Positions 18,209-64,000 of a stretch of DNA of 64,000 nucleotides are shown piece after piece. Made by a program: the position numbers and the translations under genes. Below the pieces are notes generated by a model that was not told the origin of the DNA, made no database searches, and saw nothing but the letters and a program-made list of their open reading frames with translations. Source of the DNA: Tubulanus polymorphus (lineage: Eukaryota > Animalia > Nemertea); assembly GCF_964204645.1 (NCBI RefSeq), contig NC_134032.1, positions 4,488,175 to 4,552,174 on the forward strand, given 5' to 3'. Position 1 is the first letter of the stretch; every line of letters starts with the position of its first letter.

Positions 18209-18214
18209 CTTATT

Positions 18215-35255: not shown

Positions 35256-35521
35256 AGTTCATGGGGAAATCGGAAGTAGAATTACGTCACGCTAAAATCC
35301 GGCAACTTTTGGATCGGGTGATTTCAGAATGTATTCATCTCGTGAAATTTCGACCAAGATTGGATCGTTGAATCATTTAACAATGAACCGCGTTGATCGA
35401 ACGAGTTCAAAATAGCTGAAATTCCCTTAGCAACCGGAGCGAATTCATAATAACAAACGCGCCCGGTCCGGCAACGCGCACGGGTTCGAATCCCGGAGAA
35501 TTACGCTCTAGCGCGCACGTA

Positions 35522-35869
35522 CAGCAGTCAACTCCAGCCGCAGCACTATTATGCTTTTTTGCCTGTGCATTTTTTGTTCTTGATTTTTTATATCCGCCCG
35601 AGTACAGCTTGCCTGGGCTTTGTAAGTCTCCAGGCACCTACATGATGGTGCAGGCCATTCACAATGCCTATGCAGAGAAGCCTGGCCTCTATATAGTTGA
35701 TCGCCCTAGTGCGTATGCCCCTGATAACCAGACGTTCTGGTCGTACCTTGATAATAAACAGATTGGCCAGGCCGAGCTGTCTCGATATACAAAGGGAATT
35801 CCCACATATATACCGATAAATTTATTAGACTGCCTTAGAGTTATTCATGATGGCCCTGTCAAAATTTGA
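35522..35869 (+). pseudogene. Probably 5'-truncated viral ORF at the left junction
   Basis: Frame stays open upstream of 35609 into host-like sequence with no ATG; overlaps the RPB2 start by 23 nt. Confidence 0.4.
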
Positions 35870-38800
35870 TGGTGAGATGCCATCGTCTTTTTTAAATTAT
35901 TTATATCTGGAAATGCTGCGCTACACGGGGGGTATTAAATTCTCGATGACGTATGAGCCCTTCCACTTGTTTATCAGGCGGGGCATTTCAGAGGTCCTGA
36001 CGAACCGCATGCGGCCCCAGTACATCTCAGGGATCTGGCGAGGCGAAGGAACCTTAGTCAACTATAGATTGCGCAAGCCTGAGCTAAATGGAAAGCCCGT
36101 GCTCCCGAGCAGCATTATTAACAGCAATGGCTCTTACCTGGCCACCGTCGAGTGCGATCTCAAAATCGATCTCTATAAGGCAGGGGAGCTTGTGTACTCG
36201 CAGGCGCTGCCTATGGATTTTTTTAAGATCCCTGTTCCCGTCGGCTCGATCGCCTGCAATTTGATTGATTGCGATCCCAACGATGATCTCACCACCGAGC
36301 AGTACAGGGAGCTCATCTACAAGGCCATGCTTGAATATCCGCAAGAAATCGTCGGCCAAGACACGGCCCCACTGATCTTGGGCGGCAATATTTACACCAT
36401 GCTGACGATCAAAGACATGACGACAAATCACCCATTTTATAACTTTAAGCATGCGCCCAAAGACTCGACAGCGCCCTACCACATGACTGGCAATATGCTC
36501 TGCGAATCGACGACCTCGCACGCCATGAACCATGCATACTCGATTCAGCCCAATGGCGATGGCATGGAGTTTATTTGGCGCATTCATTCGCCGCCCATTG
36601 ACAGCATTTCTATGCCCTTTTCGATGATGTTTAAGCTGCAGGACCTGTTCTCTGAGCGGCTCATGACAGCCAAGATCATATCTTATGTGCGCCACGAGAT
36701 CGTCCCCAAGGCGCGCACGCTCCTGCTTCAGCTGTTTGAGTCCGATAAGACGCGCCAAATTGAGACCTTACACGGCGCTATGCAGTATCTATACAAGCTC
36801 TGCGACGAAACAGACACGCTCGTCAAACTGAAAAACAACTACGAGCAAGAGATGACGTCGCTTAAGATTTATAGAGTTTTTTATGCGCGCCTGTTTCCGC
36901 AAGTGGACAAAACGCACTCAAATGAGCAGGGCATCGAGCTCGCTGGCAAACTCATCGGCGAGGCCATCCAAAATTACTTGACTTATAAGCAGCCCGATCC
37001 CCTCAAACATAAAAAAATTGTAAACACCCAAATTAGGGCCTCTTACCAAGCCAGCTGCATGAGGACGCCCAATGAGTACAGCAAAAAGAACTTGACCTCG
37101 GCGCTGCATCCCAAAGTTTCGCGCGATATCAAAAAGTTCCTGAAATATTGTATAGAAAGCCTCATTATAAAAGAAGACTTCAACGTGGTCAACATGCCCA
37201 AACTCATCAAAAATCTAAAAGAGCTGCCCATCACAAAAGCCATTTCAGATGTGGAAATGAAGCGCCGAAACACAAAGGGGCAGGTCATATCAGAGGCCAC
37301 AAAGCGCCACCTAGTGGGCTCGCCTGGCCAAATGGGGCGGCAGGGGCGCGTAAACTCGATTAATACATATCAGGTATACAGCTCCGAAAACACCAACGTG
37401 CATTTTCGCTATAACTCTAAGGACTCGTTCCCATTTCAGTGCCCCCTGTCCACCCCTGAGGGCGAGCCGGGCAAAAATGCCATCCCCACGCCCACCTCCA
37501 TTTCATCGATCCCGACCATTCCCAAGTCAGAGGTCTTGCGCATTTTGCTAGAGAGCCTGCCCCTTTGCAATCACATCAACTGCTGCAATATCTTCTTTGA
37601 GCAGACCCTCTTGGGGCGCTATTGCGATCCGCGCAGGATTATGGACTTGCTGTTTGGGCTCAGGCGCACTAACAAGGACATGCGCGCGATGTCGATGCAC
37701 TACAATTCCGAACAGAACAACACTAGCATCTTTTACGCAGAGGGCACGCCGATGGTGCCCCTCATTCGCGTGGTGTCCAACGAGGCCGAAGTGGCGTACA
37801 AAAATCGCCCCCAAGACTTTTGCCAGAGCCTGGCGATTACGCCCGAAGATGTCTATGAGCTCGCGCGCGGCAATACAACCATGGAGCACTTTCTGAGCGC
37901 AGGGCTCATCGATTTTGTGTCGCCCAATGAGATCACGCACCTGCATCTTTGCGGCGACTATCGAGAATTTTGGCTAAATAGGCATAACATCGAAAAGGGC
38001 TATGATTATATGTGCATGCCTGAGCAGGCCCTTGACTCTATTATGGCCTCCAATCCCAATATCGACTCGGCGCCCTGCCAGCGAGGCACATTTGCCTGGT
38101 CGCAATCGAAGGGCTCTTCGGAAATTGTCAATGTGGCCGAACTTCGCCAAAAGCGCAGCGCAGGGCTCTTGTCCGCCAATGTGCCCTTCGGCCTGACGGT
38201 GTCTTCGCTCTTAAACTCCACGTATTATCTGATGCCGCTCACGGCACTGACTGTGCATGAGTATTCGCAGGAAGATGGCATCACTCTAAATTCGCATGCT
38301 GTGTCTCGCGATTTTGGGCTAAACCTTTGCTTGAGTAAATACACCAAGAAATTGGATAATAATGAAAAGCTATGCGCAAGAAAAGATTTGCAGTCGCCGC
38401 CGCTGTGGCTCGATGCGAATGGGCTGCCGGCCGTGGGGACGCGCCTTAAAAATGAGACGATCTGCTTTTATACCATGATCACCACTGAGCGCACTGGCAA
38501 AACTGTCCATACCTTTGCCTTTAATATCTCGAGCATCGTGACCTCGGCGACTTTGTCAGTGCACAATAACAACAAGGGCATCATTTGCATTGAATTTATA
38601 TATAATCAGCCCCTGGACATGTCTTCGAAGCTGTCGCAGATTACGGGCAATAAATCGGTTGTCTCGAAGCTCGTCAGCCCCATTGATTTGCCCAAGACCC
38701 CTGACGGCGTGGCGCCCACTGTGATTCAGCAGCCCATTATGACCCCCAAGCGCGCGATCTCCGATGAGTTGGTGGCCCTGAATTCATATTATACGATAGA

Positions 38801-39362
38801 AACAGGCATCTTTAACCTATATCAGCTGGGCAACAAAAAGTCTTTCATTCCGCCTTCGCCGCAGTTCCAAAAAAGCAACCACCTGACTGATCGGTGCATG
38901 ACCCACATGATTAGCCGCTATGGGGTGCCTTTCTTGCAGCCGGTGCTAATGGCGCCCATTCCCACGCGCCGCAGCGACAAGCAGGGCTCTGCTGAGTCTT
39001 ACCATACGATTAATCCTGCGATCAATCCTGCTACAAATCAGCCCCACCGCGGGGGGCGCTCGAAGAAGGGCTCGTTTAATCGGGGCGAAATGCAGCGCAA
39101 TTTGGACTGTGCCTGCGGGGCCACTACATACACATCTGCGACCTGCCCTGATCAGATCCAAATATACAACTGCTTGTACTGCAACGGCAAATGCATCAAT
39201 CACAAAGAGCGCGGAGTGTACTGCCCAAACTGCGGGCGCTCTAAATTTGAAGCGCTCACAATAACTTCCATGGGAGATAAGCTCATCACTAGGATGCAAT
39301 GCGCCAATATCACGCTGAGCCTAAAGACGCAGGGACCCTCATCTTATGGGATCCTTAAATGA
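35847..39362 (+). CDS. rpb2: Viral DNA-directed RNA polymerase, second-largest subunit (highly divergent)
   Basis: FKIPVPVGS, CPLSTPEG, YSQEDGI, LDANGLPAVG, SKLSQITGNKSV, QPHRGGRSKKG..GEMQR, C-terminal CxxC..CxxC; 1171 aa, no introns. Confidence 0.92.
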   Translation: MMALSKFDGEMPSSFLNYLYLEMLRYTGGIKFSMTYEPFHLFIRRGISEVLTNRMRPQYISGIWRGEGTLVNYRLRKPELNGKPVLPSSIINSNGSYLATVECDLKIDLYKAGELVYSQALPMDFFKIPVPVGSIACNLIDCDPNDDLTTEQYRELIYKAMLEYPQEIVGQDTAPLILGGNIYTMLTIKDMTTNHPFYNFKHAPKDSTAPYHMTGNMLCESTTSHAMNHAYSIQPNGDGMEFIWRIHSPPIDSISMPFSMMFKLQDLFSERLMTAKIISYVRHEIVPKARTLLLQLFESDKTRQIETLHGAMQYLYKLCDETDTLVKLKNNYEQEMTSLKIYRVFYARLFPQVDKTHSNEQGIELAGKLIGEAIQNYLTYKQPDPLKHKKIVNTQIRASYQASCMRTPNEYSKKNLTSALHPKVSRDIKKFLKYCIESLIIKEDFNVVNMPKLIKNLKELPITKAISDVEMKRRNTKGQVISEATKRHLVGSPGQMGRQGRVNSINTYQVYSSENTNVHFRYNSKDSFPFQCPLSTPEGEPGKNAIPTPTSISSIPTIPKSEVLRILLESLPLCNHINCCNIFFEQTLLGRYCDPRRIMDLLFGLRRTNKDMRAMSMHYNSEQNNTSIFYAEGTPMVPLIRVVSNEAEVAYKNRPQDFCQSLAITPEDVYELARGNTTMEHFLSAGLIDFVSPNEITHLHLCGDYREFWLNRHNIEKGYDYMCMPEQALDSIMASNPNIDSAPCQRGTFAWSQSKGSSEIVNVAELRQKRSAGLLSANVPFGLTVSSLLNSTYYLMPLTALTVHEYSQEDGITLNSHAVSRDFGLNLCLSKYTKKLDNNEKLCARKDLQSPPLWLDANGLPAVGTRLKNETICFYTMITTERTGKTVHTFAFNISSIVTSATLSVHNNNKGIICIEFIYNQPLDMSSKLSQITGNKSVVSKLVSPIDLPKTPDGVAPTVIQQPIMTPKRAISDELVALNSYYTIETGIFNLYQLGNKKSFIPPSPQFQKSNHLTDRCMTHMISRYGVPFLQPVLMAPIPTRRSDKQGSAESYHTINPAINPATNQPHRGGRSKKGSFNRGEMQRNLDCACGATTYTSATCPDQIQIYNCLYCNGKCINHKERGVYCPNCGRSKFEALTITSMGDKLITRMQCANITLSLKTQGPSSYGILK

Positions 39363-40434
39363 TTTCTTTGCGCCGAGGGGCGCCGGAGAGAAGCCATATG
39401 TGCGATTCGCTCCTGCCCCTGATATGATAGTCATGGGGTCCATGGCCCTCCCCAAATTTCAACAATGCCCAGAAGGGATTTTAGGAAGAAGCATTTTAGT
39501 GATAGGATGTTCTGGCAGTGGCAAGACCACGCTAGTCAGGTCTATGCTTCTGTCTTTAAAGTCATATGGGCATCCGGTTTTTTTAATAGCGCCAACGAAT
39601 ACACTCACCCCTGCTTTTTTTCCTGATTACATGTGGATGCCTTACGAAGACAGCACCGAGATATATATAGAGTCCCTTGAGAATCTGCAAAGCTCGCGCC
39701 TAAAATGGTTTCGGTCGTCAGAGCGCCGATGCCTGGCCACCGAATATTTAAATCGGGTCAATGCATTCGAAGACACTGTCGTCGTTCTCGGCGTCTTTAA
39801 TGAAAAGTGGCAGCGGGGGATGTCTGAGGATGATTATATATGGCACTTCTTTTCTCTCGTGCACAGAATGCTGATGCGCGCCACGCATGGGCACTTAGAT
39901 CACTATTTTGAAAAGCAAGATATATATCACATTAATTACATGTGCCGGAGGGTGCCATCTATCATCTTGGTACTCGATGACTTAGGGGGCTGCGCATACG
40001 ACAAGACATATAACCGAATTTCCATCAGGTATCGGCACCTCAACATCACAATGATCACGCTCTGCCATAGCGCCATTGATCTACATCCGCGAACGCGCCA
40101 CTCGGCAACCCACACCGTCATGTGCAGCAAAGACATCGCTGACTGGTTTTTTTCGCGCAACCTGATAGACCCAAAAAAATACAATCACGAGGAGATTCAG
40201 CAGACCCTGCGCGCCCTCTTCATCGAAGGGTCCAAGCGCTTCGTCATGAAATCTAAGGACCATGAGAACATCCCGAGTCCCTTTCTGTATGTGACGGCAG
40301 AGTATTCGTATGAGGGCTCGTACTATGAATGCAAAAGCCCCCATCACGCGCATCTGCTCGAAAAAAAAAATATAAACCTCGAACTAAAGCTCATGATCAT
40401 CATGCGACTAATAGAGCTTGAGATCTTAGTGTAA
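39346..40434 (+). CDS. A32-like virion packaging ATPase (asfarvirus B354L-type architecture)
   Basis: GCSGSGKT, ~150-aa insert, IILVLDD, RYRHLNIT, DLHPRTR; 362 aa. Confidence 0.85.
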   Translation: MGSLNDFFAPRGAGEKPYVRFAPAPDMIVMGSMALPKFQQCPEGILGRSILVIGCSGSGKTTLVRSMLLSLKSYGHPVFLIAPTNTLTPAFFPDYMWMPYEDSTEIYIESLENLQSSRLKWFRSSERRCLATEYLNRVNAFEDTVVVLGVFNEKWQRGMSEDDYIWHFFSLVHRMLMRATHGHLDHYFEKQDIYHINYMCRRVPSIILVLDDLGGCAYDKTYNRISIRYRHLNITMITLCHSAIDLHPRTRHSATHTVMCSKDIADWFFSRNLIDPKKYNHEEIQQTLRALFIEGSKRFVMKSKDHENIPSPFLYVTAEYSYEGSYYECKSPHHAHLLEKKNINLELKLMIIMRLIELEILV

Positions 40435-40448
40435 ACGCCGGGGGCCCT

Positions 40449-41639
40449 TCATAGCTTCTGACTGAGCATGCGGAAGGCCGGGCGCCCCACGGTTGACGCC
40501 GGCTTTTTAGGTGCGTCAGCGGGCCCTCCTTTTTTCCTTTTTTTTGCATAGGCGCCTCCGGTCAGAGTCATCTGTAGCGCCGTCTGCTTCATTTTCAGTC
40601 GATGCAGGATGTCAGGGCCCTCATAAAACATAAAATCTTGGCAGAAGGACTTGAGCGTCTGGGGGCTTTCGACGATGTCGTCTAAGTATTCGCCCTTTCC
40701 ATAACTTGATTGCAGGGAGATTGCCAACATCGCCGCCGGCATCGAAAAGCCAGTCGAGCCCCTAAAGCGCCTGCGCAAAAAGCACAGCTGGTCTATCAAA
40801 AAGATAAAGGAGTCATACTGGACCCGCTGCTGCTGGAGGGGCTGGTGATAGATCTGCATCAAATCGCCTAGAGAGGGCTGACTTTCGAGCTGCATCACAT
40901 TGGGGTAAGCCGCCTCTTTATACTCTAGCAGCTTTTCAATGGCCGGGATATGATCTTGCACTGCTCTCCCATACAAGTCGAGTGTGGTGGCCATGTCCAA
41001 GAGAAACCCTGTTTTACTAAGCTTTGGAAGCGCAGGGCTCTCATATAGAAATCCGCTAAGGGCTGCGAGGGCGATGTTGGGGGGGCTAGTCCTGAGCAAA
41101 AACTCTTTAATTTCGTCGCAGCCTGGGTGGAGCGAATTTATCATTAGGTTGGCGGCAATAGAGAGGCTGCGACCAGTCTTGGGCGTTTCCATCAGGCAAT
41201 CTGCGCAATAGACCAAGACATAGGCGATATTCGCTGCCTCCAGCTCCAAGAGAGCATCAGGGAGCAGTAGGCTCGTGCTCTCACAGATCTCTGCAATAAG
41301 ATCTTTATAAGTGCTGATGGCCCACTCTAGCTTTGTCGTAATGGAGCGGGCTGGCAGGCCCTGGCATGTTTGCGAAAGCGCCAAGGGCTTAAAATATTTA
41401 AAAAAGAAAGAGTGGCCATTTTTTTCAATACAAATCATGTGCGTGCTCTCAGAGTGTATGACTTTAAGGCCTGAGCATGTCAGCGCTGGATTTACAGCCG
41501 AAATGCAGTAATCGCCCACATCTAATTGCGAGCGCGTGGGGCACTGATCAGGCACCAATATGCACATCGAGCATTCCTGGTCGGTGCAGTATGCCAGGCA
41601 TGCCGCCGTGGTCTCGACTCTATCGCCTGATTCTGCCAT
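40449..41639 (-). CDS. Viral hypothetical protein (Cys-rich N-terminus, basic C-terminus)
   Basis: 396-aa intact ORF; KKRKK NLS-like tail. Confidence 0.75.
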   Translation of the reverse strand: MAESGDRVETTAACLAYCTDQECSMCILVPDQCPTRSQLDVGDYCISAVNPALTCSGLKVIHSESTHMICIEKNGHSFFFKYFKPLALSQTCQGLPARSITTKLEWAISTYKDLIAEICESTSLLLPDALLELEAANIAYVLVYCADCLMETPKTGRSLSIAANLMINSLHPGCDEIKEFLLRTSPPNIALAALSGFLYESPALPKLSKTGFLLDMATTLDLYGRAVQDHIPAIEKLLEYKEAAYPNVMQLESQPSLGDLMQIYHQPLQQQRVQYDSFIFLIDQLCFLRRRFRGSTGFSMPAAMLAISLQSSYGKGEYLDDIVESPQTLKSFCQDFMFYEGPDILHRLKMKQTALQMTLTGGAYAKKRKKGGPADAPKKPASTVGRPAFRMLSQKL

Positions 41640-41700
41640 CTCTCCTATTTAAGAAAAAAAAAGCCCGAGGCCTCTGATCTTTTTTGTATTATAGACCAGA

Positions 41701-42147
41701 ATGGATGAGCTAGGTGATTCTGCGATCGCGGCCATTGTGGTCATAATTCTTATGATTCTGATCTTGGTTACAGTCAGCATCATTAATATGGTCACTGTCA
41801 AGGGAATAGAGAGAGTCCTATTGCGCGACAATGGCCCACCCCCGCGCAGGCCCCTTGGCGCAGGGCCCCCGAGGAACCAGGGCGTGATCTCTACGATCCA
41901 CAAAGAGGGCCCTGATCCACCCGCAAAGATTGGGCCAAAGGAGCAAAGCGCAGGGGGCAAGCCCATCTTGTCAAAGGCGCTGATAGCCGATGAAAATCGC
42001 AAACGGCCACCCACCAATCTCAGCGATCCCGCAAAGGCGCCTGTTCCAAATTTAAAAAGGGCAGGGACTCGGCCGAATATTAGTAATACTAGGATTGCGC
42101 TGATGTCGGCTGTCTTGCCTTGGGCCAGCCCTGCCTTCCAGGGATGA
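41701..42147 (+). CDS. Viral single-pass membrane protein with Pro/basic tail
   Basis: TM at residues 8-30; TATA upstream; T7 run at 42159. Confidence 0.7.
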   Translation: MDELGDSAIAAIVVIILMILILVTVSIINMVTVKGIERVLLRDNGPPPRRPLGAGPPRNQGVISTIHKEGPDPPAKIGPKEQSAGGKPILSKALIADENRKRPPTNLSDPAKAPVPNLKRAGTRPNISNTRIALMSAVLPWASPAFQG

Positions 42148-42199
42148 GCAGGGGGTGCTTTTTTTCTCTATCGGCCGAGGCGCAAAAAAAAGGGGTAGG

Positions 42200-42466
42200 T
42201 TATTTTTTTTTTTCAGCAGCCACTGGGGGATTATGCGCCTTTTGCTCGACTTGCTGGGCAGCTTCGCTTATAATCTGAAGTTGCAGAGGGAGATTGGGCA
42301 TGTCTACACAATTATTGCGAAAATCATGCAGAATTGTGTTTACTTGCGCAATCGCCGCATCTGCCATCAAAGGATGACACTGGTCCCAGGCGATTTTAAT
42401 GGTAGTAAGGCAATCCCCAGGAGACATGTCTTTTAAGGCCTCGAGCGCTTTGGGATCACTGGACAT
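42200..42466 (-). CDS. Viral hypothetical protein (possibly the frameshifted 3' half of the upstream ORF)
   Basis: 88 aa; followed by a minus-strand T8 at 42184. Confidence 0.5.
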   Translation of the reverse strand: MSSDPKALEALKDMSPGDCLTTIKIAWDQCHPLMADAAIAQVNTILHDFRNNCVDMPNLPLQLQIISEAAQQVEQKAHNPPVAAEKKK

Positions 42467-42701
42467 CTGAGCGCGATCTCGATTTTGTGCTAGTTTGGAT
42501 GTCAGAGCTGCCTACACTGCTCGTTGAAAATGAGGACAGCGCCTGCTGAGATAGGCAACGGATCGATTCTGCTAAGGCGCACTCGGGGAGAGAATTGAGT
42601 TTTTGATCGTAATCTTCATGAGTAAATGACTCTAATTGGCTTTTGTATTTGTCTGCAATATCGGCCAGGTGAGTATTAATGTTTCCACTACTGTTAGCCA
42701 T
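42456..42701 (-). CDS. Viral hypothetical protein
   Basis: Likely start MANSS at 42701; overlaps the next ORF. Confidence 0.45.
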   Translation of the reverse strand: MANSSGNINTHLADIADKYKSQLESFTHEDYDQKLNSLPECALAESIRCLSQQALSSFSTSSVGSSDIQTSTKSRSRSDVQ

Positions 42702-43551
42702 GGCAGTTTCAATGTTTGTTGGGCCGATGTGTTGCGGCAAGACTAAACACATTCAATCATTAATGCAGAGAAATAAAAAATTAAATGGTGCGTATATCGT
42801 ACCTGCCGATATTCAAGTCAGCTTTAATAGCAGGGCTGAGCACTCTCTTGCACCCAATTTTTTCCCTTCTATGGACATAATCCCTATTTTTTCCCTCGAG
42901 AATCTCAGCAACACCATTGCGACTAAGGCCCTTAAAGAGTATGACACATTTATTGTGGCTGATTTACTATTCTATGATGGGCACCTCAAAGACAACAACA
43001 GCCACCAAGACTATGTCAGGCTCGCCAATAAACATGGCAACCACCTGCTCGAGTTTATAGACGAGTGCAAGAGCAAAGGCATAACAATCATTTTGCAAAG
43101 CAATCCGCGCTTTTTCGACAAATCGCCAGTACTGATCTGCGAGGTAATAGTCTCTTCTCCGCACTTAAGCGGCCGCGTGCGCGTTTTGCCAGGCTGCTGC
43201 TCTTATTATATGTGCCAGAGCACTCTTAGACCTTATGCGCAGCGCCTGACATCGCACAGCAAAAGCATACTCATTGACCGGCACCTGTACATGACTCTCT
43301 GCGACGATCACGTCGATTATACGGCGCCTGAGTTGCAGTCGATCTACATTACCTCTATGGTCTGGCACCTGACAGTTCCTGACAAAGGCGCCCTAGCCCT
43401 TTTCCGCGAATTTCAGGACAGGGGGGTGAGCGCCATCATTGGCACGGGCTGGGCTTTGCTGGTTAGTCATCTCTTGCACATGCCTCACAGCCCGCCGATT
43501 ACCATTTTCAATCTAGCAGAGAGGACTGCCAGGCCTGCAGGGATGCAATAG
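42700..43551 (+). CDS. tk: Thymidine kinase-like protein (type II fold), divergent, with C-terminal extension
   Basis: GPMCCGKT P-loop, SR motif, Zn-site C..C and lasso region RL..ILID..YMTLCDDH; Walker B reads IVADLLF. Confidence 0.7.
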   Translation: MAVSMFVGPMCCGKTKHIQSLMQRNKKLNGAYIVPADIQVSFNSRAEHSLAPNFFPSMDIIPIFSLENLSNTIATKALKEYDTFIVADLLFYDGHLKDNNSHQDYVRLANKHGNHLLEFIDECKSKGITIILQSNPRFFDKSPVLICEVIVSSPHLSGRVRVLPGCCSYYMCQSTLRPYAQRLTSHSKSILIDRHLYMTLCDDHVDYTAPELQSIYITSMVWHLTVPDKGALALFREFQDRGVSAIIGTGWALLVSHLLHMPHSPPITIFNLAERTARPAGMQ

Positions 43552-43733
43552 CGCTCGTTTCTGTGCTCGCAGAGGATGGGGCCCTTGAGATACACTTATA
43601 GCATATGCCTTTTTTTGCACAATCGGCGCAGGGGCCCAAAAAGGCAAAGGGCAAAAAAAAAGTTTAAAGCATCGGAGGACTGCTGCAGTCAGGCGCCCCT
43701 CTCTTAGATATTTTGCGGTGGCCCTGCGCTTAT

Positions 43734-44189: not shown

Positions 44190-44346
44190 CGCGCCTATTT
44201 AAATAAATGGCAAAGAATGTCTATAAACTATAAATTGTGGGGGCGCCCCCTTCCGCTAGGAGATAAAAAAAACATAAGAACCCCCTCCCATGGAAGCCCG
44301 GCGCATGAAAGGGCTCTGCTAAAGCGGGCAGGAATCTCATCGCCCA

Positions 44347-44943: not shown

Positions 44944-45101
44944 CGTATCTATTTTTCCCAAAGTTATAAGCCCCCTGGGTAAAATCCTCTTTATATGGCG
45001 GCCGCGCGCCCCCTCTCTTTTTTTTCGCGGAATCAGGTCCCTGCCTAAGAGCGCCTCACTTCCGCACAAAAAAAAAGAAAGGGGGATAATGACAGACTGG
45101 T

Positions 45102-49659: not shown

Positions 49660-49694
49660 TGGCATTGTTTAATATCTCTTTATTTTTTTAAGGA

Positions 49695-54857: not shown

Positions 54858-55673
54858 CTAAGAGGAGGGCGCTGCGATAGGCAGGGAGTCTGTTTGGGGC
54901 ATCTGTTTGACGGCTATGGCGTCTAGTGCGCTTAAAAAGGTCAGGGCCTGAGTGACGTCAGTGAGGCGAAAGCAGCGGCATGGAACATCATGGAAGGGCA
55001 CGGGATCCCGGCGCTTGATGTATAGCGGCAGGACTCCGATGTCTTCTACGACCTGCGTAAACAGCGTCAGCTCTTGCGCCAATAGAGCCTCGCTGGTCTC
55101 TTTGCAGTAGATGTGCACTTGGGCGGCATCGGCGATTTCGCTAGTGTCATGATCGATTAGGACGTTGCTGTCCTTTAAGCGGGAGTATCGCAGGGGCGTT
55201 TTGGTGATAGGGGGCTTTTTTGGAAGGGCGTAGCCGGCTATCTGCGAGTAGTTATTGGCAAACAGCAAGGGGCGATTGGGCGCCCTTTGGAGAAGGCGCA
55301 CATTATTCCACATGTGAACAATGCCTATGATGTGGTGCTCAAAATACCGAGTGAGCTTCATGCCCTCTGTCGTGAGCGTTTCTTCGCCTAGTGCGCTGTA
55401 TTGTTGGAGGATGTCAAAGATGACATTGATGGCGATGTGCGCCTGAACCATGGTGCCTGCCCAGTCGGGCTCGCGGAGCTTATAAGTGAGGAGCAGATCT
55501 TCTATGCCTTTGTATGTGAAGAGCAGGGCCTGCTCGAGCGCTTTCATTCTGTCTTTGGCCACGGTGTCGAGCGCTTGGTGGCCTTTTACGAATGCGCCTA
55601 TAAATTCAGCGGCCGTGGATGCATCTCCAAGGTAGAGCAGCGCCTGGCGCTTTAAGTTGGTTAATGGGTCCAT
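54858..55673 (-). CDS. Viral multigene-family member (duplicate copy)
   Basis: EPDWAGTMVQAHIAI motif; likely start MDPLTN. Confidence 0.8.
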   Translation of the reverse strand: MDPLTNLKRQALLYLGDASTAAEFIGAFVKGHQALDTVAKDRMKALEQALLFTYKGIEDLLLTYKLREPDWAGTMVQAHIAINVIFDILQQYSALGEETLTTEGMKLTRYFEHHIIGIVHMWNNVRLLQRAPNRPLLFANNYSQIAGYALPKKPPITKTPLRYSRLKDSNVLIDHDTSEIADAAQVHIYCKETSEALLAQELTLFTQVVEDIGVLPLYIKRRDPVPFHDVPCRCFRLTDVTQALTFLSALDAIAVKQMPQTDSLPIAAPSS

Positions 55674-56456
55674 TTTTTGTCTCAAAATCTATAGTGGGCC
55701 CCTGATCAAATGTGCATAGCATGCCGGCGCGGGGCAGAGGGGGCAAAAAAAAGCAGTTATGCAAGAGGCTGAGTGTTTGTGCCTGATGGCGGGGGGAGGC
55801 GAGAGATAGCGATCTGCTTTAATGTATCAATATGCTCTAGCGCGCTGTCTGCTGTGGGGAGAAGAAAGCAGCGGTATGGTAGGTCATCTAAGATCGGATA
55901 GTGACTTTTATGGAGAATGCGCGGCATATTGGCGATCTTGTTGGCGATGGTGCTGATGTAAGTAGTCTTGATTGCTTGGAGGTCTTGGCTTTTCTAATTT
56001 TTTGCGCGAACGGGGGGCAGGGATCCAATGAATACCTGCTCATTTGCCGCTCGATGAGCTCGCCTGAGGGGTCATTTCCCGCCTGGTGCGCCGCCTGACT
56101 GCTGATTTCCCGCACGATTCGCAAAAGATTTCGCAAATGGTGTGTTTAGGGTTTCTTTCATTGATGCCATTTCTGCGTGAACGAAGTCAGGCGCCTTTTT
56201 TATCTTTCTTACTGTCTTTCCTGCGGCTTTGGGCATCGATGAGCAAAGGGGGTCGGCACTTTTGGCGTGCGAGCGTGCTTTTGTGAGTAGAAAAGGGCGT
56301 TCCTGCGTACCTGACGGCAGGGCCCCTCCCTCTTTTCTCTTCGCGATTCGCACAGATTTCATAAATGGTGTGTTTAGGGTTTCTTTCATTGATGGCGTTT
56401 CTGCGCGGATGGCGTTTTTGCGTGAACGAGCGCAGGGATCTAATGAATGGCTGCTG

Positions 56457-56694
56457 GTTTCTCGCCCGATTCGCAAAGGGCGCTGATGGCGTTTCTCGCC
56501 CGATTCGCAAAGGGCGCTGATGGCGTTTCTCGCCCGATTCGCAAAGGGCGCTGATGGCGTTTCTCGCCCGATTCGCAAAGGGCGCTGATGGCGTTTCTCG
56601 CCCGATTCGCAAAGGGCGCTGATGGCGTTTCTCGCCCGATTCGCAAAGGGCGCTGATGGCGTTTCTCGCCCGATTCGCAAAGGGCGCTGATGGC
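56457..56694. repeat. Second 7 x 34-bp array
   Basis: GTTTCTCGCCCGATTCGCAAAGGGCGCTGATGGC x7. Confidence 0.95.
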
Positions 56695-57454
56695 GTTTCT
56701 GCGTGAACGAGGGCAGGGGGTCTCCATTCTTTTGCTGATTTCTCGGGGCATTGAGCGGATGATTTAGGATGATTGGCGCAACGATTGAAAAAAATACAAA
56801 GATGCGTACTTAGGGTTTTTTGTGAAGGGCATTTTCGGCGCGAAGGGGGGCAGGGGCCTTTGGGGCCTTTGGAGGGGCCTGCGGAGAGGGGGGGGGCCAA
56901 AAAAAGGCGTAAAAACCCCCCTATGGGAGCTTAGTGGACACTCAGGCGCTGACCAGGCGCGCGAGGGCGCTATAAGCACCGTGGGAAAAGGGGAGCCAAT
57001 GGGGGTCAATCCGGGCTACCCTCTTCCCCTATAAGGAAAAAAAAGTATGTTAAGTGAGCGGGAAATCGCAATTGGCCTTTTACGAAAGAAAGGTACAGTT
57101 ATTCAGTGGGGCTTTGAGAATGGAGCGCATAGCGAGAGTGGATTCATTGTTACTGCCGGACTTCACTCAGGAAGAATTTAATTCTCTGTTGATTATAGTG
57201 TTCGGGTCTATTGAGTTTCAGCTCTTTCTACTCTTAATTTCGAGTGTACTATCCGGCTTCACACAGGCAGGGTGGCAAAGGGCGGAACTGAATAGGATCT
57301 GTCTATTTGGGGGCCCATAGTAGAGCTTTTATGGGCGCGGCAGAGCAGAGGGGCAAAATGATTTCAGCAAGATTTCATGAAGGAGTGGTTTAAGGCTTTG
57401 CGCACAATGCGTTTTTTTTTTTGCGCGGCAAGAGAAGAAAAAAAAAGAATAAGG

Positions 57455-58270
57455 CTAAGAGGAGGGCGCTGCGATAGGCAGGGAGTCTGTTTGGGGCATC
57501 TGTTTGACGGCTATGGCGTCTAGTGCGCTTAAAAAGGTCAGGGCCTGAGTGACGTCAGTGAGGCGAAAGCAGCGGCATGGAACATCATGGAAGGGCACGG
57601 GATCCCGGCGCTTGATGTATAGCGGCAGGACTCCGATGTCTTCTACGACCTGCGTAAACAGCGTCAGCTCTTGCGCCAATAGAGCCTCGCTGGTCTCTTT
57701 GCAGTAGATGTGCACTTGGGCGGCATCGGCGATTTCGCTAGTGTCATGATCGATTAGGACGTTGCTGTCCTTTAAGCGGGAGTATCGCAGGGGCGTTTTG
57801 GTGATAGGGGGCTTTTTTGGAAGGGCGTAGCCGGCGATCTGCGAGTAGTTATTGGCAAACAGCAAGGGGCGATTGGGCGCCCTTTGGAGAAGGCGCACAT
57901 TATTCCACATGTGAACAATGCCTATGATGTGGTGCTCAAAATACCGAGTGAGCTTCATGCCCTCTGTCGTGAGCGTTTCTTCGCCTAGTGCGCTGTATTG
58001 TTGGAGGATGTCAAAGATGACATTGATGGCGATGTGCGCCTGAACCATGGTGCCTGCCCAGTCGGGCTCGCGCAGCTTATAAGTGAGGAGCAGATCTTCT
58101 ATGCCTTTGTATGTGAAGAGCAGGGCCTGCTCGAGCGCTTTCATTCTGTCTTTGGCCGCGGTGTCGAGCGCTTGGTGGCCTTTTACGAATGCGCCTATAA
58201 ATTCAGCGGCCGTGGATGCATCTCCAAGGTAGAGCAGCGCCTGGCGCTTTAAGTTGGTTAATGGGTCCAT
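57455..58270 (-). CDS. Viral multigene-family member
   Basis: One amino-acid difference from 54858-55673. Confidence 0.8.
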   Translation of the reverse strand: MDPLTNLKRQALLYLGDASTAAEFIGAFVKGHQALDTAAKDRMKALEQALLFTYKGIEDLLLTYKLREPDWAGTMVQAHIAINVIFDILQQYSALGEETLTTEGMKLTRYFEHHIIGIVHMWNNVRLLQRAPNRPLLFANNYSQIAGYALPKKPPITKTPLRYSRLKDSNVLIDHDTSEIADAAQVHIYCKETSEALLAQELTLFTQVVEDIGVLPLYIKRRDPVPFHDVPCRCFRLTDVTQALTFLSALDAIAVKQMPQTDSLPIAAPSS

Positions 58271-58352
58271 TTTTTGTCTCAAAATCTATAGTGGGCCCCT
58301 GATCAAATGTGCATAGCATGCCGGCGCGGGGCAGAGGGGGCAAAAAAAGCAG

Positions 58353-59175
58353 TTATGCAAGAGGCTGAGTGTTTGTGCCTGATGGCGGGGGGAGGCGAGA
58401 GATAGCGATCTGCTTTAATGTATCAATATGCTCTAGCGCGCTGTCTGCTGTGGGGAGAAGAAAGCAGCGGTATGGTAGGTCATCTAAGATCGGATAGTGA
58501 CTTTTATGGAGAATGCGCGGCATATTGGCGATCTTGTTGGCGATGGTGCTGATGTAAGTAGTCTTGATTGCTTGGAGGTCTTGGCTTTTCTGGGTGCAGG
58601 ATTCGATCACTTCGTCGAGGTCGGCGGTCTTTTCAGACGGCGGTCTTGGAGATCTCTACGATGTTGTTGGAGGCTAAGGTGAAATAGTATGGGAGTGAAT
58701 TTCTTGCGAGGGACACGTCTCTGATAGTCTGAGAATAAGTTTGGCATGAGTGCGTATCAGTATATAGTAAAGACTTTTGGGGCGAGCGGGTCAGCAGGGG
58801 GGCATTTTTCCATACATCATCTATTCTTCTGCGGATCTGGGCAAGAGCCTGGGCCTGTATAGGGGCGCAGTAGCCGAACGCGATTTCGGGGGTGTATATA
58901 TAGCCTTGGAAGATCTCATTGACGATGTTGTACGAAAGGTGTGCCTGTATTAAGAGGCCTGCCCAGCTGGGCTCAGGGATCTCATGAGCATTGATGAATT
59001 GTGGGATGGTTTCGTGGGTAAAGGTCAGGGCCTCTTCGAGGGCTACCATTTTTGTGCGGGCGAGGGGTGAGAGCTTTTTGTGCTTTAGGATGCTGCTGCC
59101 GATTAGTTCGATGGCCACTGCGGCCTCGCCGAAGCGAAAGACAGCGTTCTCTTTTAGCTCTTCTTTGTCTGCCAT
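58353..59175 (-). pseudogene. Viral multigene-family member, frameshifted near 58630
   Basis: EPSWAGLLIQAHLSY; the downstream ORF ends DDLPYRCFLL, matching HDVPCRCFRL of the neighbour. Confidence 0.75.
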
Positions 59176-59272
59176 GATAAATCTACTAAATATGTAGTAA
59201 GCTAGATGGCCAAAATCTGCATAATATATGTTCTATAAAAAAAAAGGCTTACGAAGGCAGGGGCCCTCCCCA

Positions 59273-60160
59273 TCATAGGATGGTGCACGAGCGCGTCATG
59301 GGCCGAGCGGTTCTTCTTAGGGATCGAAAGAGGCGTGCTGCGCCCAGTCGGATGTGGATAAAAATGTCTGAGTCTAAAAAGGTGTTATGGGCGCGATTCG
59401 AATTGATGTATCTTATCAGGTCGTCGAGCTCTCTCTGGGCGGTTTGTAAGCCCGCTAGGGCAGAGCACACTATATAGATGGGGCTGCCCGGGGGATAGGG
59501 CGGCACTGCGCTCTTTTGCGAAATGGTTTCTACGGCCTCTCGCAGGGTGTCAGAGGCATCTGCCTGCAATTGGCTAATGACCTCATAGTAGCTAGAGGCT
59601 TTGGCGCGGTAGTGGGCTAAGATTCTGTTTTCGTCTTGGAAGGCGCCCAGATTTTGATTGCGTGTGCTGCGAATGTAGTGAAAGATCTTGAGGACATGAT
59701 TCATGAGCAGCTCTTCGTCTTTGGTGGTGAAGTGCGAGTACTTTTCCCAGGCTGAGGGGTCAAAGGGCAGCGGGTCACAAAAGAGCTGGGTGGCGCGAGT
59801 ATAGAGCTTGGATATGCGGCTATCGGATAGGCTCTTTATTGTTTTTTTTATTGACGAGTCTGAGCGCTCTTTATCGGTGGGCAGGGCGCTGTAGTCTTCT
59901 AATAGCTGTTCGACAGCCAAATACATAGAGTGCGCCGCGAGTATCAGAGATAGCCATTCAGTCTCGTCTGGGAAGGGGAGAAAGGCAGGCGCTATGGCGA
60001 TCATAGAGAGGCGCGATTGAGAGATGGTGCGATAGTAGTGGTGATAGCGATTGCCGATGCCAGAAGTGTCAGCCATTTGGATGCTAAGGGCTGCGCAGGA
60101 CGAGCTGCCCTGGCCGAGGGCCTCGATTATTGTTAGCTTTTTTGTCTTTAAGGCAGCCAT
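59273..60160 (-). CDS. Viral multigene-family member
   Basis: ETEWLSLILAAHSMY; 295 aa. Confidence 0.75.
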   Translation of the reverse strand: MAALKTKKLTIIEALGQGSSSCAALSIQMADTSGIGNRYHHYYRTISQSRLSMIAIAPAFLPFPDETEWLSLILAAHSMYLAVEQLLEDYSALPTDKERSDSSIKKTIKSLSDSRISKLYTRATQLFCDPLPFDPSAWEKYSHFTTKDEELLMNHVLKIFHYIRSTRNQNLGAFQDENRILAHYRAKASSYYEVISQLQADASDTLREAVETISQKSAVPPYPPGSPIYIVCSALAGLQTAQRELDDLIRYINSNRAHNTFLDSDIFIHIRLGAARLFRSLRRTARPMTRSCTIL

Positions 60161-60171
60161 TTTATATTAAT

Positions 60172-61023
60172 TTAAGATCCTAAAATGTAAAAAAAACAGT
60201 CTCTATCAGGTATGATCGTATACTGCATGGGAGGGGCCTCGTCGTCGGCGCCCCAGCCCTGAGTCATTTCGATGGCTTGATCGATGCGATCGAGAAGCAT
60301 TGACAGGGAGTGCATGTGCTCGGCTTTGGGTGCCAGGCTCGAAGGGGGCAGGTGCTTTGCGTCCCTGGACTCTACATCGATGGCGCCGATCGCGCTCTTT
60401 ATGTAGGACTGGGCTTCCTTAAATTTAGTGGTGGCATTCTTGGCGAGCGCGCGCAAAAAGTTCTGGAGGCACACATTGTCTTGGGGCGCAATCGCCTGCT
60501 GCGCGGCATTAGATCTCAGGACTTCCATTACAAAGTCATCGGCGCCATGGATGCCTACATCGATCTGTTTGTCATCGGGGCTGAGGAGCAGGCTGGGCCG
60601 AGTGCGAGAAGCAGGCTCCCAAGGGTCTGCCTTGGAGCCCATGCGAAGGGCCATTTTATACAAAGAGAAGGCGCATCGATTGTATGAAGATCGCATGCCG
60701 TCTATGATGGACGTCTGGGTGGCCAAGCTGGGCAGGCGCTGCCTTTGAAACTTTTGGCAGTACTCTTCTATTTGTAGGTAAAAGGAGTAGGCCTCGGCCA
60801 GGAGGCATATCCAGCTGGCCTGATCGGTGGTGATTGTAAACATGGGAATCATCTCATAGATCTCCAAGCGCGCCTTGGTGATCTGGGTAAAGCGGCAGAT
60901 CTGTTCGCTCGATGTCGCATCACCGTCCTGCAGAAAGCCGATCAAGGCAAAGATCATGGAGTTAGTGCTGCCAATCAGGTACACGGCGTGCGCGGGGATG
61001 TTTTTTTTGCGCAATTCTTCCAT
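60172..61023 (-). CDS. Viral multigene-family member
   Basis: QASWICLLAEAYSFY; 283 aa. Confidence 0.75.
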   Translation of the reverse strand: MEELRKKNIPAHAVYLIGSTNSMIFALIGFLQDGDATSSEQICRFTQITKARLEIYEMIPMFTITTDQASWICLLAEAYSFYLQIEEYCQKFQRQRLPSLATQTSIIDGMRSSYNRCAFSLYKMALRMGSKADPWEPASRTRPSLLLSPDDKQIDVGIHGADDFVMEVLRSNAAQQAIAPQDNVCLQNFLRALAKNATTKFKEAQSYIKSAIGAIDVESRDAKHLPPSSLAPKAEHMHSLSMLLDRIDQAIEMTQGWGADDEAPPMQYTIIPDRDCFFYILGS

Positions 61024-61175
61024 GATTAGTAATGTGGACTATTAAAAAGCGATTTATAGCGAAACGGGCGCCGGCTGGTAAACGGGCACAGGGGCGCCAA
61101 ACAAAAAAAAAGAAATGGCCAGGGCGATTATAGTATAAAATAGAATATCGCGCAAAAGGGGCAGGGGCCTTAGAG

Positions 61176-61941
61176 TCAAAGGGCCGCTAGGCGCCTGAGG
61201 ATCGCTTTGTAGCCCTTGTCAAGGATGCGCAGCCCCGCGAATTGTTCGCAAAATATAAGGATGCTGAGTTTACCGTGCGGGTTGTATAGAGAGCTGTTTC
61301 GCGTGATAGTTGCGCATTTGTATTCGAGCGATGAATAGGCGCTATAACTGAGAGTCTTGATGAATTGGAGAGTGTTGCCCCCGACTTCAAAGGCTCTTTC
61401 AAGGACGCAGGACTCCATGGGGGGGTCATTATCCAAAATCTCGTTGGACGTGCGGACATCTTCAAAGAGATCGCGAAGGATCTCATTTAAGAATTTGGAC
61501 TCAGGAGACGACTCGTCGGGTATGGGCGGCCATGATGTGATGGGCGGCTGAATGGCCATGAGGGCTTCGGCATAGGCCTGAATAGCGCAGAAATCTCGCT
61601 GGTATAATGTTCGGAGATCCTGAATGACATCCTCTAAGTCGGCTGAGTTTGGAGGGTTCGGCAGGGTCTACGATGCTATCTATGAGGGTTTCGGCCTTTA
61701 GGCAAATCGAGTGCCCCCACGCGGCTAGGCCTACCCATTCGGCCGCTGACCAGGCGGGCAGCAGCATTTCCATCCAGTGATATAAAAACGAGCGCGCATC
61801 CCTGATGTGGCGGGCTCGATGGGCCAAAAAGGCTATATTTATAGGTGTGGCGCCAAGTATCATCATCATGGCCTGCAGGGTGCCATGGGCAGAGGTGAGC
61901 GCCTCGATGATGCTGGCCTTTATTTCGAGTACTGTCAGCAT
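61176..61941 (-). pseudogene. Viral multigene-family member, frameshifted near 61650
   Basis: AAEWVGLAAWGHSIC; the alternative frame SADLEDVIQDLRTLYQ joins ORF 61176-61559. Confidence 0.7.
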
Positions 61942-62133
61942 AGTAGGAATTATATTTAATTTTCTAACTAACTTGGGGCGCGGCAAATATGCGCAATCTT
62001 GTTCAAGGGGGCAGGGGGCCTGCGCGCCATAGGGGGGGCGAGGCCGAGGGGAAAGCAAAGCGGGCACAAAAAAAAACACACGCACACTCTCTGAAGAAAA
62101 GGAGAGAGAGGCAGGGCACAGGGGCGCCTTGGC

Positions 62134-62931
62134 TTAGACGCAGCAGCAACGGCAGCGCTCGATGCATTTGTCGAGGGCGCTCCTGGCATTTAAGATAGAA
62201 GTCTCGCCTTCGTAGGCGCCCATCAGTTCATTGCAAATGTCGGACCAGGCCACTGCGCAGACCTGAATGGGATTTAGATCGCATGCGCGCATTTTGGCGA
62301 TCTCTTGGTCCGGCAAGCCGAGCAGGTGGGCGCGCACTGCCCTAATGGCGGTGTCCCAATAGTCTAGCTCCATAGAGACCTGCTTAGTCTCTTCGATGGT
62401 CGAAGGGTCAGCCTCTGCTAATGTGCGCTTGATTCTGCGGGTGGCAATGATGGTGTCCATGATGCCGCGATGGGGCCCTTCGCAGCTGGGGGTCAGGTCA
62501 TCGTCATCGCTGTTGTGGCACTCATAGTAGGTGGGGTCCCCTCTTATCAGCTCTTTTGAGCGGGTGCCCATCAGGTCGAATTCTGATGATGATATGTGCC
62601 TAAGGGCGCAGAGGGCTTGCATTTTTTTTGTGGTGTCATTCCTTGGGTCTTCATAGGCTTGCATGTAGAACTTGATGTATGTAAAGGCAATCAGAGCGCG
62701 GCCCAAGAGCTCTGCCCACATTCCTTCTAGGGGCAAATGCCTCCTGTCGTCTAGGTCGTCGAGGCATTTTAGCATATTTTTCATATATTGATCTATGTTT
62801 TGGTTGATCAGGGAGCCTATACCATGGGCGCTGCCACAGAGGTCAAAGAGGCCCACAAATACATGAATCGAGACCATGGATACCTTAATGGTCAGGTCAA
62901 TCTCGCTTTCCCATTTGCTTGCGACATTCAT
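62134..62931 (-). CDS. Viral multigene-family member (divergent)
   Basis: EGMWAELLGRALIAF; C-terminal CRCCCV. Confidence 0.7.
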   Translation of the reverse strand: MNVASKWESEIDLTIKVSMVSIHVFVGLFDLCGSAHGIGSLINQNIDQYMKNMLKCLDDLDDRRHLPLEGMWAELLGRALIAFTYIKFYMQAYEDPRNDTTKKMQALCALRHISSSEFDLMGTRSKELIRGDPTYYECHNSDDDDLTPSCEGPHRGIMDTIIATRRIKRTLAEADPSTIEETKQVSMELDYWDTAIRAVRAHLLGLPDQEIAKMRACDLNPIQVCAVAWSDICNELMGAYEGETSILNARSALDKCIERCRCCCV

Positions 62932-63040
62932 CTTTATTGTAAAAGTCAATACCTAAAATAATCACTGATTTGCGCTTTCTTGCGGCCCTTGCGAAAAAAA
63001 AAGCTCAGGGGGCTGAGTGACTAGTGTACAAGGCAGTGGG

Positions 63041-63751
63041 CTATGGGCCGCCCCACCGGGCAGGGCTGGGGGCCAAAAGAAGCGGCGATGCAGGGGGCGG
63101 CCATAGGCGGCTGACATCTGTGGGCAGGTGCGCCTCTGCCGCAGGGGGTTCTCTATATCTGATTTGGGCGAGGGCAAAGTGTGGGGGCACTGAAAGGGCA
63201 TGTGGAGATGGGCACATGAATATAGAGGGGCCCTGCGCGGCAGAGGAGCGAGCGCTAAGGCAGAGAGAGTCGCATAAGGAGCTAGTATCGGCATCAGAGG
63301 CATTATCATATAGAATGCAAAAGCCCTTCCAAGGAGGGCCCTCGTCTTCGGTGCGCGGGTGCAGCCTTTCGCCCAAGAGGCGCGACATCTGCTTGAGGGC
63401 CGATCGAGAGCGCGAGAGGTAGATGGCATTTGTAATAATTAGCAAAATGTGCATATCTGGATTAAAGGTGCTGAGAAATAGTTTTAGGGGTGTTGCTTTC
63501 ATGTCGATGAGGCATACATATTCATCTTTTAGGCCAAAGAGCATGGATATATTGTCTATCTCTGGGCGGTGTAGGACAGGGTCTTGACCATGCAGCAGCA
63601 CATGGATATGCGCCCTGTCTTTGCCATCTTTGTAGTCGGTGGCGATTTCGTGCCAGCGCTGCCAATAGTGGGTGAGCTGCGGGAGCCAGCAAAAGAGGCG
63701 AAGGTCTGAGCTGGGCTTGTGGCTAAATGCAAAACCATGATCGAAAGGCAT
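63041..63751 (-). CDS. Viral orphan protein (alpha/beta pattern)
   Basis: 236-aa ORF, AT-rich upstream, T9 downstream. Confidence 0.6.
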   Translation of the reverse strand: MPFDHGFAFSHKPSSDLRLFCWLPQLTHYWQRWHEIATDYKDGKDRAHIHVLLHGQDPVLHRPEIDNISMLFGLKDEYVCLIDMKATPLKLFLSTFNPDMHILLIITNAIYLSRSRSALKQMSRLLGERLHPRTEDEGPPWKGFCILYDNASDADTSSLCDSLCLSARSSAAQGPSIFMCPSPHALSVPPHFALAQIRYREPPAAEAHLPTDVSRLWPPPASPLLLAPSPARWGGP

Positions 63752-64000
63752 GTCGAAATAATAAGGACTTAACTTCTACAAAGGAGGTAAAATGTGCATT
63801 GCACTGCGCCCGGCTAGCCTTTTTTGTCAGGGCCCCCCCCCCTTTTCTTTTTTGGGGCGAAAAAAAAAACACAACAGTAAGGGGAGGGCCCCCTAAACGT
63901 CGTGGAAGCCTTCTAAGAAGTCGTCTATGCTCTTTAAGATCCTATGTGGATCGTCTGCGAAGATTTGGGGGGTGAGATGAGGATCGATCTGTTGGCGAAT

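Follow-up and report, generated by a model that had tools for sequence, protein, structure and literature searches.

A candidate giant endogenous viral element allied to Asfuvirales in the nemertean Tubulanus polymorphus

How does a dense run of virus-like genes come to lie beside host repeats in an animal genome assembly, and to which viruses do these genes belong? Both questions are raised by a 64,000-nucleotide stretch of the Tubulanus polymorphus assembly (contig NC_134032.1, positions 4,488,175 to 4,552,174; hereafter the window), which has three compartments: AT-rich Maverick/Polinton copies at 4-31 kb (GC content 0.24-0.25), host repeats at 31-35.5 kb (0.39 over 30.8-35.5 kb), and a GC-rich viral part from 35,548 onward (0.50-0.53). 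An abrupt rise in GC had been pointed out in a preliminary description of this DNA and is evident, with the reads setting its edge at 35,547/35,550 and not at 35,520. The dense, intronless open reading frames (ORFs) reported there are equally clear, as 40 non-overlapping ORFs beginning with ATG and at least 60 aa long cover 83% of 35,548-64,000. We judge this part to be genuine nucleocytovirus DNA of an undescribed branch within Asfuvirales or next to it, and most probably an insertion that is inherited and in decay. The features that matter most to this reading are the following.

35548..64000, no strand assigned: viral segment (probable giant endogenous viral element), truncated by the right end of the window; reads of samples S1, S2 and S3 lie over 35.55-53.15 kb
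35847..39362, plus strand: RPB2, the second-largest subunit of RNA polymerase, 1171 aa, intact, with no internal stop
39346..40434, plus strand: A32-like genome-packaging ATPase, 362 aa, overlapping RPB2 by 17 nt

The two genes named in the preliminary description as RPB2 and an A32 ATPase are just that, with matches to PF00562 (E 4e-12, 46.3 bits, cut-off 23.4) and PF04665 (E 5e-11, 43 bits, cut-off 22.8), and they are the only two of 28 scanned viral ORFs to pass a Pfam cut-off, the other 26 having no family. In an Atlas search the ATPase matches Pox_A32 clusters with a score of 0.97, and two of the top three, at 360 and 385 aa, are mostly Nucleocytoviricota. The long insert between its Walker A and B motifs was also correctly described: the spacing is 153 aa, about 75 residues more than the 77 aa of the Maverick ATPase in the same window, and it compares with 165 and 192 aa in two Asfuvirales-like (asfu-like) genomes, G015 and G014. 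The end of the insert aligns with those of two asfu-like A32 proteins, at weak pairwise scores of 13-17 bits. A PF04665 scan of four of 26 loci gave no match, and the window A32 protein used as a query then weakly matched two of the four.

An exhaustive protein search with the window RPB2, covering 1.84 billion representatives, returned 267 proteins at E ≤0.001, and five of these (P0002-P0006) stand far above the rest, with E values from 1e-123 to 1e-52 and 23-29% identity, the next match being at 6e-22. They are encoded on contigs of 105,940, 142,631, 1,760,312, 5,091 and 165,577 bases, and together with P0076 and P0152 they make up the clade of the window RPB2, which has no named member. P0004, on the 1,760,312-base contig, is likely an endogenous copy of the same lineage in a second host. 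Word-based protein searches missed the clade, giving one match for RPB2 residues 600-1171, none for the ATPase and four unrelated ones for the clade alignment; pattern scans of viral and metagenome contigs found no locus for the window RPB2, the window ATPase, P0002 or P0003. A profile made from the window RPB2 and six clade sequences scores African swine fever virus (ASFV) at 168.7 bits over its full length, followed by archaeal (126), RNA polymerase (Pol) II (123), Pol III (113), Pol I (85) and vaccinia (50) sequences, the comparison with Pol I and Pol III being by profile score only and the trees having a Pol II row. With the window RPB2 alone, the best PDB chains are likewise those of ASFV (8xx4, 8y0e, 8q3b), at 41.6 bits; the ASFV-near protein P0145 scores 1220 bits.

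We built three RPB2 trees: a FastTree of 127 rows, a quick mixture-model tree of 63 rows, and a careful tree of 37 rows and 630 columns (LG+C20) after 26 long or redundant rows were dropped. The clade is recovered in all of them. In the careful tree the window and four relatives are joined at 100/100 and lie inside a 24-row asfu-like clade, also at 100/100, outside which fall P0131 (Pol II), three rows from archaea and nine from other giant viruses, the latter presumed to be Megaviricetes; the asfu labels rest on the PDB scores of P0009, P0054 and P0145. Within the asfu-like clade the window clade is nested with P0016/P0054/P0025 at 97/86. Approximately unbiased (AU) tests, for which the groups were named after the trees were seen, reject a grouping of the window clade with the other giant viruses (p-AU 6e-5) and with five ASFV-near rows (P0145, P0125, P0086, L003 and L005; p-AU 0.02). 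The phylogeny that the preliminary description had called for therefore places RPB2 neither with cellular polymerases nor close within the ASFV-near rows, and the proposal of an undescribed nucleocytovirus lineage in or near Asfuvirales is borne out by profile scores, trees and AU tests alike. Judged from its proteins, the viral segment is likely to represent a nucleocytovirus of an undescribed deep lineage allied to Asfuvirales; the long branches and the missing poxvirus and egovirus references limit what can be said of the clade's rank. A literature search found no paper evidently describing this RPB2 clade, which does not show that the clade is unpublished. Further long-branch RPB2 groups with ASFV as their best match (P0010, P0013/P0157, P0014 and P0147/P0159) adjoin the window clade, some of them on contigs of 170-513 kb; P0010, listed by NCBI as a hypothetical protein and assigned to a 'Candidatus Riesia' bin, likely comes from a mis-binned virus contig.

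The window RPB2 carries the motifs SKLSQITGNK and KKGSFNRGEMQR, which had been read as eroded versions of motifs that are normally near-invariant. The motifs are there, and erosion is the wrong word for them: aligned with Pol II and archaeal sequences, the protein keeps the Glu-Asp pair, both lysines of GxK, R746, R969 and the four zinc cysteines, residues to which we presume a catalytic role. A histidine of Pol II and archaea is a lysine in the window RPB2, and the same lysine is found in the ASFV-near row. The surroundings of the motifs are rewritten alike in the other members of the clade, so they point to divergence of a lineage, which we read from this alignment as old and under selection, and not to decay within the host genome. 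GNK, described earlier as an asfarvirus trait, occurs in the ASFV chain, in eight of the 12 RPB2 ORFs of asfu-like loci L001-L012 and in two of 67 from other giant-virus loci; GQK is present in two of the same 12, which makes GNK typical of the group and not exclusive to it. In P0002, P0004 and P0005 the Glu-Asp pair of the window, ASFV-near, Pol II and archaeal rows is replaced by Glu-Glu, an unusual state at a conserved polymerase position. A structure model of the window RPB2 is poor (predicted local distance difference test score [pLDDT] 58, predicted template modelling score [pTM] 0.31), and its TM-scores, near 0.2, cannot rank families. A link to Mininucleoviridae was considered and is unsupported by the viral-structure search, itself a weak test, in which that family came at rank 22 with 13% identity.

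Whether the segment belongs to the host genome can be judged from sequencing reads. Of ten runs, four (samples S1 and S2; study P1, 2024) contain at least half of the sampled words, five small ones contain next to none, and X5 (sample S3; study P2, 2026) consists of raw reads; five of the ten were mapped on 34.4-53.15 kb, so that 53.15-64 kb is outside the read test. The element is present in three samples from two studies. X5 covers all bins at a flat depth of 18.9 ± 3.7 (29 bins), and among its 27 variant sites 22 are intermediate, with a mean fraction of 0.47, and five are fixed against the window. We infer two chromosomal versions at about 50:50 which, if they occupy one diploid locus, would imply about 100 Mb of host DNA. 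Between the contigs of run X1 (S1) and the window, a sum made by hand gives 23 differences in 17,679 letters (0.13%); the viral depth of these contigs is 34 to the left of 48,280 and 18 to the right of it; as a host proxy, 14 contigs with single diverged copies of host repeats have a median depth of 32 and a range of 20-45 (one row at 194 was left out). From 37 listed single-site variants we classed 31, five of them intergenic, with six in adjacent pairs excluded and nine further ones not shown; the 26 coding variants comprise 18 non-synonymous and eight synonymous changes, compatible with neutrality (23% synonymous expected, p 0.22).

The samples also differ in structure. Sample-specific loose ends, at which reads or contigs leave the window sequence, lie at 42321, 43517, 46904, 47212 and 48280. 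Of these, three fall within ORFs. Duplications are present at 44567-46691 and 46962-47039. The ends at 42,321, 46,904 and 47,212 belong to S2; in S3, foreign DNA interrupts the element at 43,517, and a stretch of 2.1 kb is tandemly duplicated. A further difference is this breakpoint:

48280, no strand assigned: breakpoint at which S1 and S2 carry other sequence, absent from the window (in X1 contigs, 5.1 kb behind it and 1.3 kb before it)

The loose ends of run X2 at 46904 and 47212, both in ORF 46842-47558, finish in nearly identical letters, which suggests that one mobile element family inserted twice in S2.

Where the viral segment meets host DNA, two features adjoin each other:

30800..35547, no strand assigned: host flank, with tandem repeats of 0.4-1.4 kb and a high-copy repeat (about 35,253-35,547) ending in the B-box-like GGTTCGAATCC
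35547..35550, no strand assigned: left junction between the high-copy host repeat and viral DNA, where two alternative flanks share a few letters

The high-copy repeat ending in GGTTCGAATCC may be SINE-like (resembling a short interspersed element); tRNA and Rfam scans of the sequence gave no match. X5 depth is about 870 on the flank repeats versus about 19 on the viral part, a difference of about 45-fold. Twelve X5 reads break off at 35,547 and carry on in AT-rich DNA, and at 35,533 the window's letter is carried by 11 of 33 reads and another letter by 22; the departing reads thus represent either an empty site or further copies of the host repeat. If none of the 33 crossed, about 24 would be expected to leave (p 0.005), which makes it likely that about one haplotype's share of the reads runs on into the virus. 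In S1, an X1 contig enters viral DNA at 35,550 from a different left flank of 253 nt, the visible end of which resembles, by eye, the AT-rich spacers of the element itself. Because this viral contig continues left past 35,550, the edge seen in the window is likely a later break in one haplotype and not the original insertion site: host repeat would have replaced upstream viral DNA that is still present in S1, and the viral segment likely extends further left in other haplotypes. The claim that the virus is embedded in the host genome thus stands as regards the three samples, the versions at about 50:50, the host-like depth and the ORF-breaking polymorphisms; the exact left junction is a matter of read counts, with the flank of S1 differing, and that part of the claim did not hold up as well.

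The rest of the viral segment consists largely of orphan genes:

40449..41639, minus strand: orphan ORF, 396 aa, with no match in Pfam, PHROGs or NCBIfam and none in two asfu-like genomes
41701..52672, no strand assigned: block of short orphan ORFs in which no family passes the cut-off, most followed by a poly-T run
42679..43551, plus strand: ORF of 290 aa with a P-loop-like start, GPMCCGKT
53200..54500, no strand assigned: repeat-rich, likely non-coding region; GC skew changes sign nearby
53403..55995 and 55998..58591, no strand assigned: 2.6-kb tandem duplication, the copies differing by six substitutions and seven gap positions
54858..61941, minus strand: tandem multigene family of five distinct paralogs in six copies (54858-55673 with its copy 57455-58270, 58633-59175, 59273-60160, 60172-61023 and 61501-61941)
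62134..63751, minus strand: two orphan ORFs of 265 and 236 aa

The ORF at 42679-43551 had been called TK-like, and we could not substantiate a thymidine kinase: Pfam, NCBIfam, PDB and Atlas give no match, and the only hits are to unnamed PHROGs at E 0.12-0.31. Its structure model (pLDDT 41) is too poor for a fold test, with a best Z of 6.4 and no thymidine kinase among the best 50 rows. Near its end, at 43,517, it is interrupted by foreign sequence in one S3 version (a loose end of 10 reads). Six of the short ORFs (41701, 47643, 48955, 49695, 50244 and 50911) each have one predicted hydrophobic, membrane segment in a hydropathy scan; a match of ORF 47643 to PF05568 (ASFV J13L) was rejected, as it is below the cut-off (E 0.028) and starts on the hydrophobic segment.

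As a sequence pattern, the poly-T runs noted earlier are well supported. On the sense strand, 22 of 27 ORFs are followed by a run of at least seven T no more than 130 nt away, compared with 11% of random windows and with 9 of 27 antisense and 14 of 27 upstream controls, and TTATAG is enriched upstream of the viral ORFs. To our knowledge, poly-T termination is not unique to Asfuvirales. The tandem multigene family is also real (BLAST and leave-one-out profiles, E 4e-5 to 5e-20), and no Pfam model matched it. Member 58633-59175 is broken, its likeness to 54858 continuing in another frame at 58,356-58,637, and the short member 61501-61941 is likely broken too. ORF 62134-62931 is outside the family (E 0.2) and matches only phrog_9433, of unknown function (E 5e-4). 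The 2.6-kb duplication that holds the first two copies is either real or a stack of haplotypes. Perfect tandem arrays of 7.2 units of 34 nt lie at 53858-54101 and 56457-56700, and their region may mark an origin or what was once an end of the genome. A reading as joined genome ends was discarded for want of inverted arms; no inverted arm or inverted terminal repeat is present inside the 28-kb viral segment.

To the left of the junction there are only Mavericks and repeats, which are no proof of the animal-type genome or of the invertebrate host proposed in the preliminary description. Nested host tandem repeats at 31862-35235 have units of 494 nt and 1050 nt that are 98-99.8% alike. At 4091-21723 lies a Maverick/Polinton of about 17.6 kb (GC 0.24) whose 363-nt inverted ends are 98% alike, with fragmented polymerase-like ORFs at 5258-8627 (presumably pPolB), capsid pieces at 14094-15341 (PF16903, E 0.002), an A32 ATPase at 16513-17124 and an rve integrase at 17585-18208. 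Decayed and rearranged copies of the same family, 72-94% alike and in both orientations, occupy 1400-2030 and 22160-30760, such that DNA-virus-like elements accumulate at this locus beside the giant-virus insertion.

From these genes and variants a history can be proposed. The ancestral virus would have relied on a multi-subunit RNA polymerase of its own to transcribe its genes, likely in the cytoplasm, would have stopped its transcripts at poly-T as ASFV does, and would have packaged its DNA into a capsid with the A32 motor. A copy then likely entered the germ line and a host chromosome recently, as indicated by the divergence of about 0.13% between samples, the unameliorated GC and the fact that most ORFs are still open; the entry was probably accidental, since no integrase is recognised in the viral part of the window. 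After insertion, the haplotypes would have come to differ, likely by neutral decay, through insertions of host-like sequence, a deletion spanning at least 6 kb, tandem duplications and broken reading frames. That the insertion is inherited is likely because three samples carry slightly different, decaying versions of it, and its depth close to that of host loci, its occurrence in several individuals, its allelic variants and its decay are together the marks of a giant endogenous viral element.

Several of our results count against this reading, some on the placement of the virus and others on its inheritance. As to placement, the stem branch of the careful tree is about 1.9 changes per column and carries a long-branch warning; a position as sister to all asfu-like rows, as opposed to nested among them, is not rejected (p-AU 0.34); the trees have no poxvirus, egovirus or proculovirus rows and represent ASFV by the proxy P0145; and they rest on a single marker, the rows having been chosen because they resembled either the query or an asfu profile. 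Foldseek with the poor RPB2 model did not favour ASFV among viral structures (rank 39, a fragment), and against the PDB it nearly tied ASFV with archaeal and Pol II chains. Neither capsid, PolB, RPB1, VLTF3 nor D5 primase is recognised among the 28 viral ORFs of the window, which the element exceeds. The long stem, the unrejected exclusion, the missing references and the 26 of 28 ORFs that have no family would all suit a clade that forms its own order-level branch of Pokkesviricetes, or belongs with egoviruses or proculoviruses, and is pulled to the asfu-like rows by long-branch attraction. Such a placement has to contend with a lead of ASFV over vaccinia of more than 100 bits in the clade profile, with the shared GNK and His-to-Lys states and an A32 insert of the asfu type, and with the nesting beside P0016/P0054/P0025, and we regard it as somewhat unlikely. 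One could also imagine that RPB2 is a host gene, either a divergent cellular RNA polymerase or a domesticated one, since its contig bears eukaryotic mobile elements and Foldseek scores it about as close to Pol II as to ASFV. This idea is scarcely credible for a gene that is intronless, overlaps an A32 packaging ATPase, sits in DNA that is 83% coding with poly-T runs after its ORFs, groups away from the Pol II and archaeal rows and belongs to a clade whose profile favours ASFV.

As to inheritance, no read or contig was directly seen to span 35,547-35,550 in the window's form, and S1 enters the virus from its own flank. Variants below 15% were not listed, a threshold that could hide the spectrum of a viral population; contig depth is, by the tool's own warning, no copy number, and the host comparison uses a proxy for single-copy DNA. 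S2 depth is uneven, mostly 25-70 on the left and 0-29 beyond 49 kb. The five small runs with next to none of the words bear the same species label, and X7, possibly an RNA run, has no matching reads, though these prove nothing either way. All three listed in-ORF indels are multiples of three, a hint of selection for open frames. A free or episomal virus that persistently infects the species or a co-sequenced symbiont, and that the assembler joined to a host repeat, would explain the different flank of S1, a junction falling at the end of a high-copy repeat with no spanning read displayed, the open state of most ORFs and the frame-keeping indels, and relatives on contigs of 106-166 kb, a virus-like size. 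It would also need coincidences to produce S3 allele fractions near half, the 2:1 depth step of S1, a depth like that of a host locus, sample-specific insertions that break ORFs and a neutral-looking mix of variants, and only 12 of the expected 24 reads leave at the junction; we consider it unlikely. The element could instead be integrated and still competent, a latent provirus such as the punuivirus reportedly is in Chlamydomonas, with the window showing one damaged haplotype. Open core genes with their catalytic residues kept, more viral DNA in S1 and S2 than in the window, and very low divergence between samples speak for this, and ORF-breaking events in S2 and S3, the depth step in S1, the neutral-looking variants, the broken paralogs and the lack of a recognised integrase or capsid gene in the window's viral part speak against it, so that we find it quite improbable. 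The inherited, decaying insertion of an asfu-like or neighbouring virus is the reading that we carry into the comparison with known systems.

ASFV and other Asfuvirales resemble the window element in several respects: theirs is the best-scoring solved RPB2, and they share GNK, the His-to-Lys change, a long-insert A32 (in two asfu-like genomes), poly-T runs and a tandem gene family. ASFV transcripts terminate at poly-T, according to the accessible part of PMC7163114, and that of PMC4664411 describes 34-nt tandem units in the ASFV terminal repeat; with the arrays of the window the latter share unit length only, there being no inverted arms here. The gene family of the window, having no Pfam match, shows no kinship with the ASFV multigene families. 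The low score of the window RPB2 on ASFV and the rejected grouping with ASFV-near rows set the element outside Asfarviridae in the narrow sense. Its nearest kin are P0002-P0006, P0076 and P0152, which have the same rewritten RPB2.

Endogenous elements derived from Asfuvirales are described for Euglena gracilis and Rhizophagus irregularis, and viral regions for the Elysia marginata assembly, in the accessible parts of PMC12455990 and PMC10640383, which place them near ASFV, abalone virus and pacmanvirus. As far as those parts show, they are similar in being Asfuvirales-type DNA of raised GC in a eukaryote assembly, eroded by mobile elements and duplication, Elysia being an animal case. Unlike them, the window element has a much longer branch and stands apart from the ASFV-near rows, in trees from which the sequences of those elements are absent, and has segregating versions in several samples. 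The excerpted description of Egovirales (10.1101/2024.03.23.586382) is of a deep, gut-associated Pokkesviricetes lineage closest to poxviruses, with RPB2, an A32-like ATPase and linear genomes of 160-360 kb; the window clade differs in scoring far lower on vaccinia than on ASFV, the egoviruses being compared by that description only. A survey of eukaryote assemblies suggests, in the portion available, accidental entry for nucleocytovirus regions that have no mobility genes (10.1101/2025.04.19.649669), and a 2026 catalogue, similarly excerpted, divides Asfuvirales into several families (PMC13524828); the part of PMC11097642 available makes no mention of asfarviruses.

The kind of element is thus already known, and what is new is a far more divergent lineage together with evidence at the level of a population. 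A branch that word-based searches overlook is now tied to a host species with several sequenced samples, and this opens to test the depth of the lineage around asfarviruses and poxviruses, its hosts, and the spread and decay of a freshly integrated giant virus in a population. The RPB2 of the clade is also a natural test of how far the active site of a eukaryote-type polymerase can be rewritten. We speculate, tentatively, that Pokkesviricetes include a new branch at family or order level and that the window holds the first of its members to be linked to a host. This member would have entered an animal germ line recently and would segregate there as several haplotypes, with relatives in further hosts (the 1.76-Mb contig on which P0004 lies) as well as free relatives with genomes of 100-170 kb. 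The lineage would then be one of giant viruses that infect animals, overlooked so far, whose RNA polymerase has been radically rewritten.

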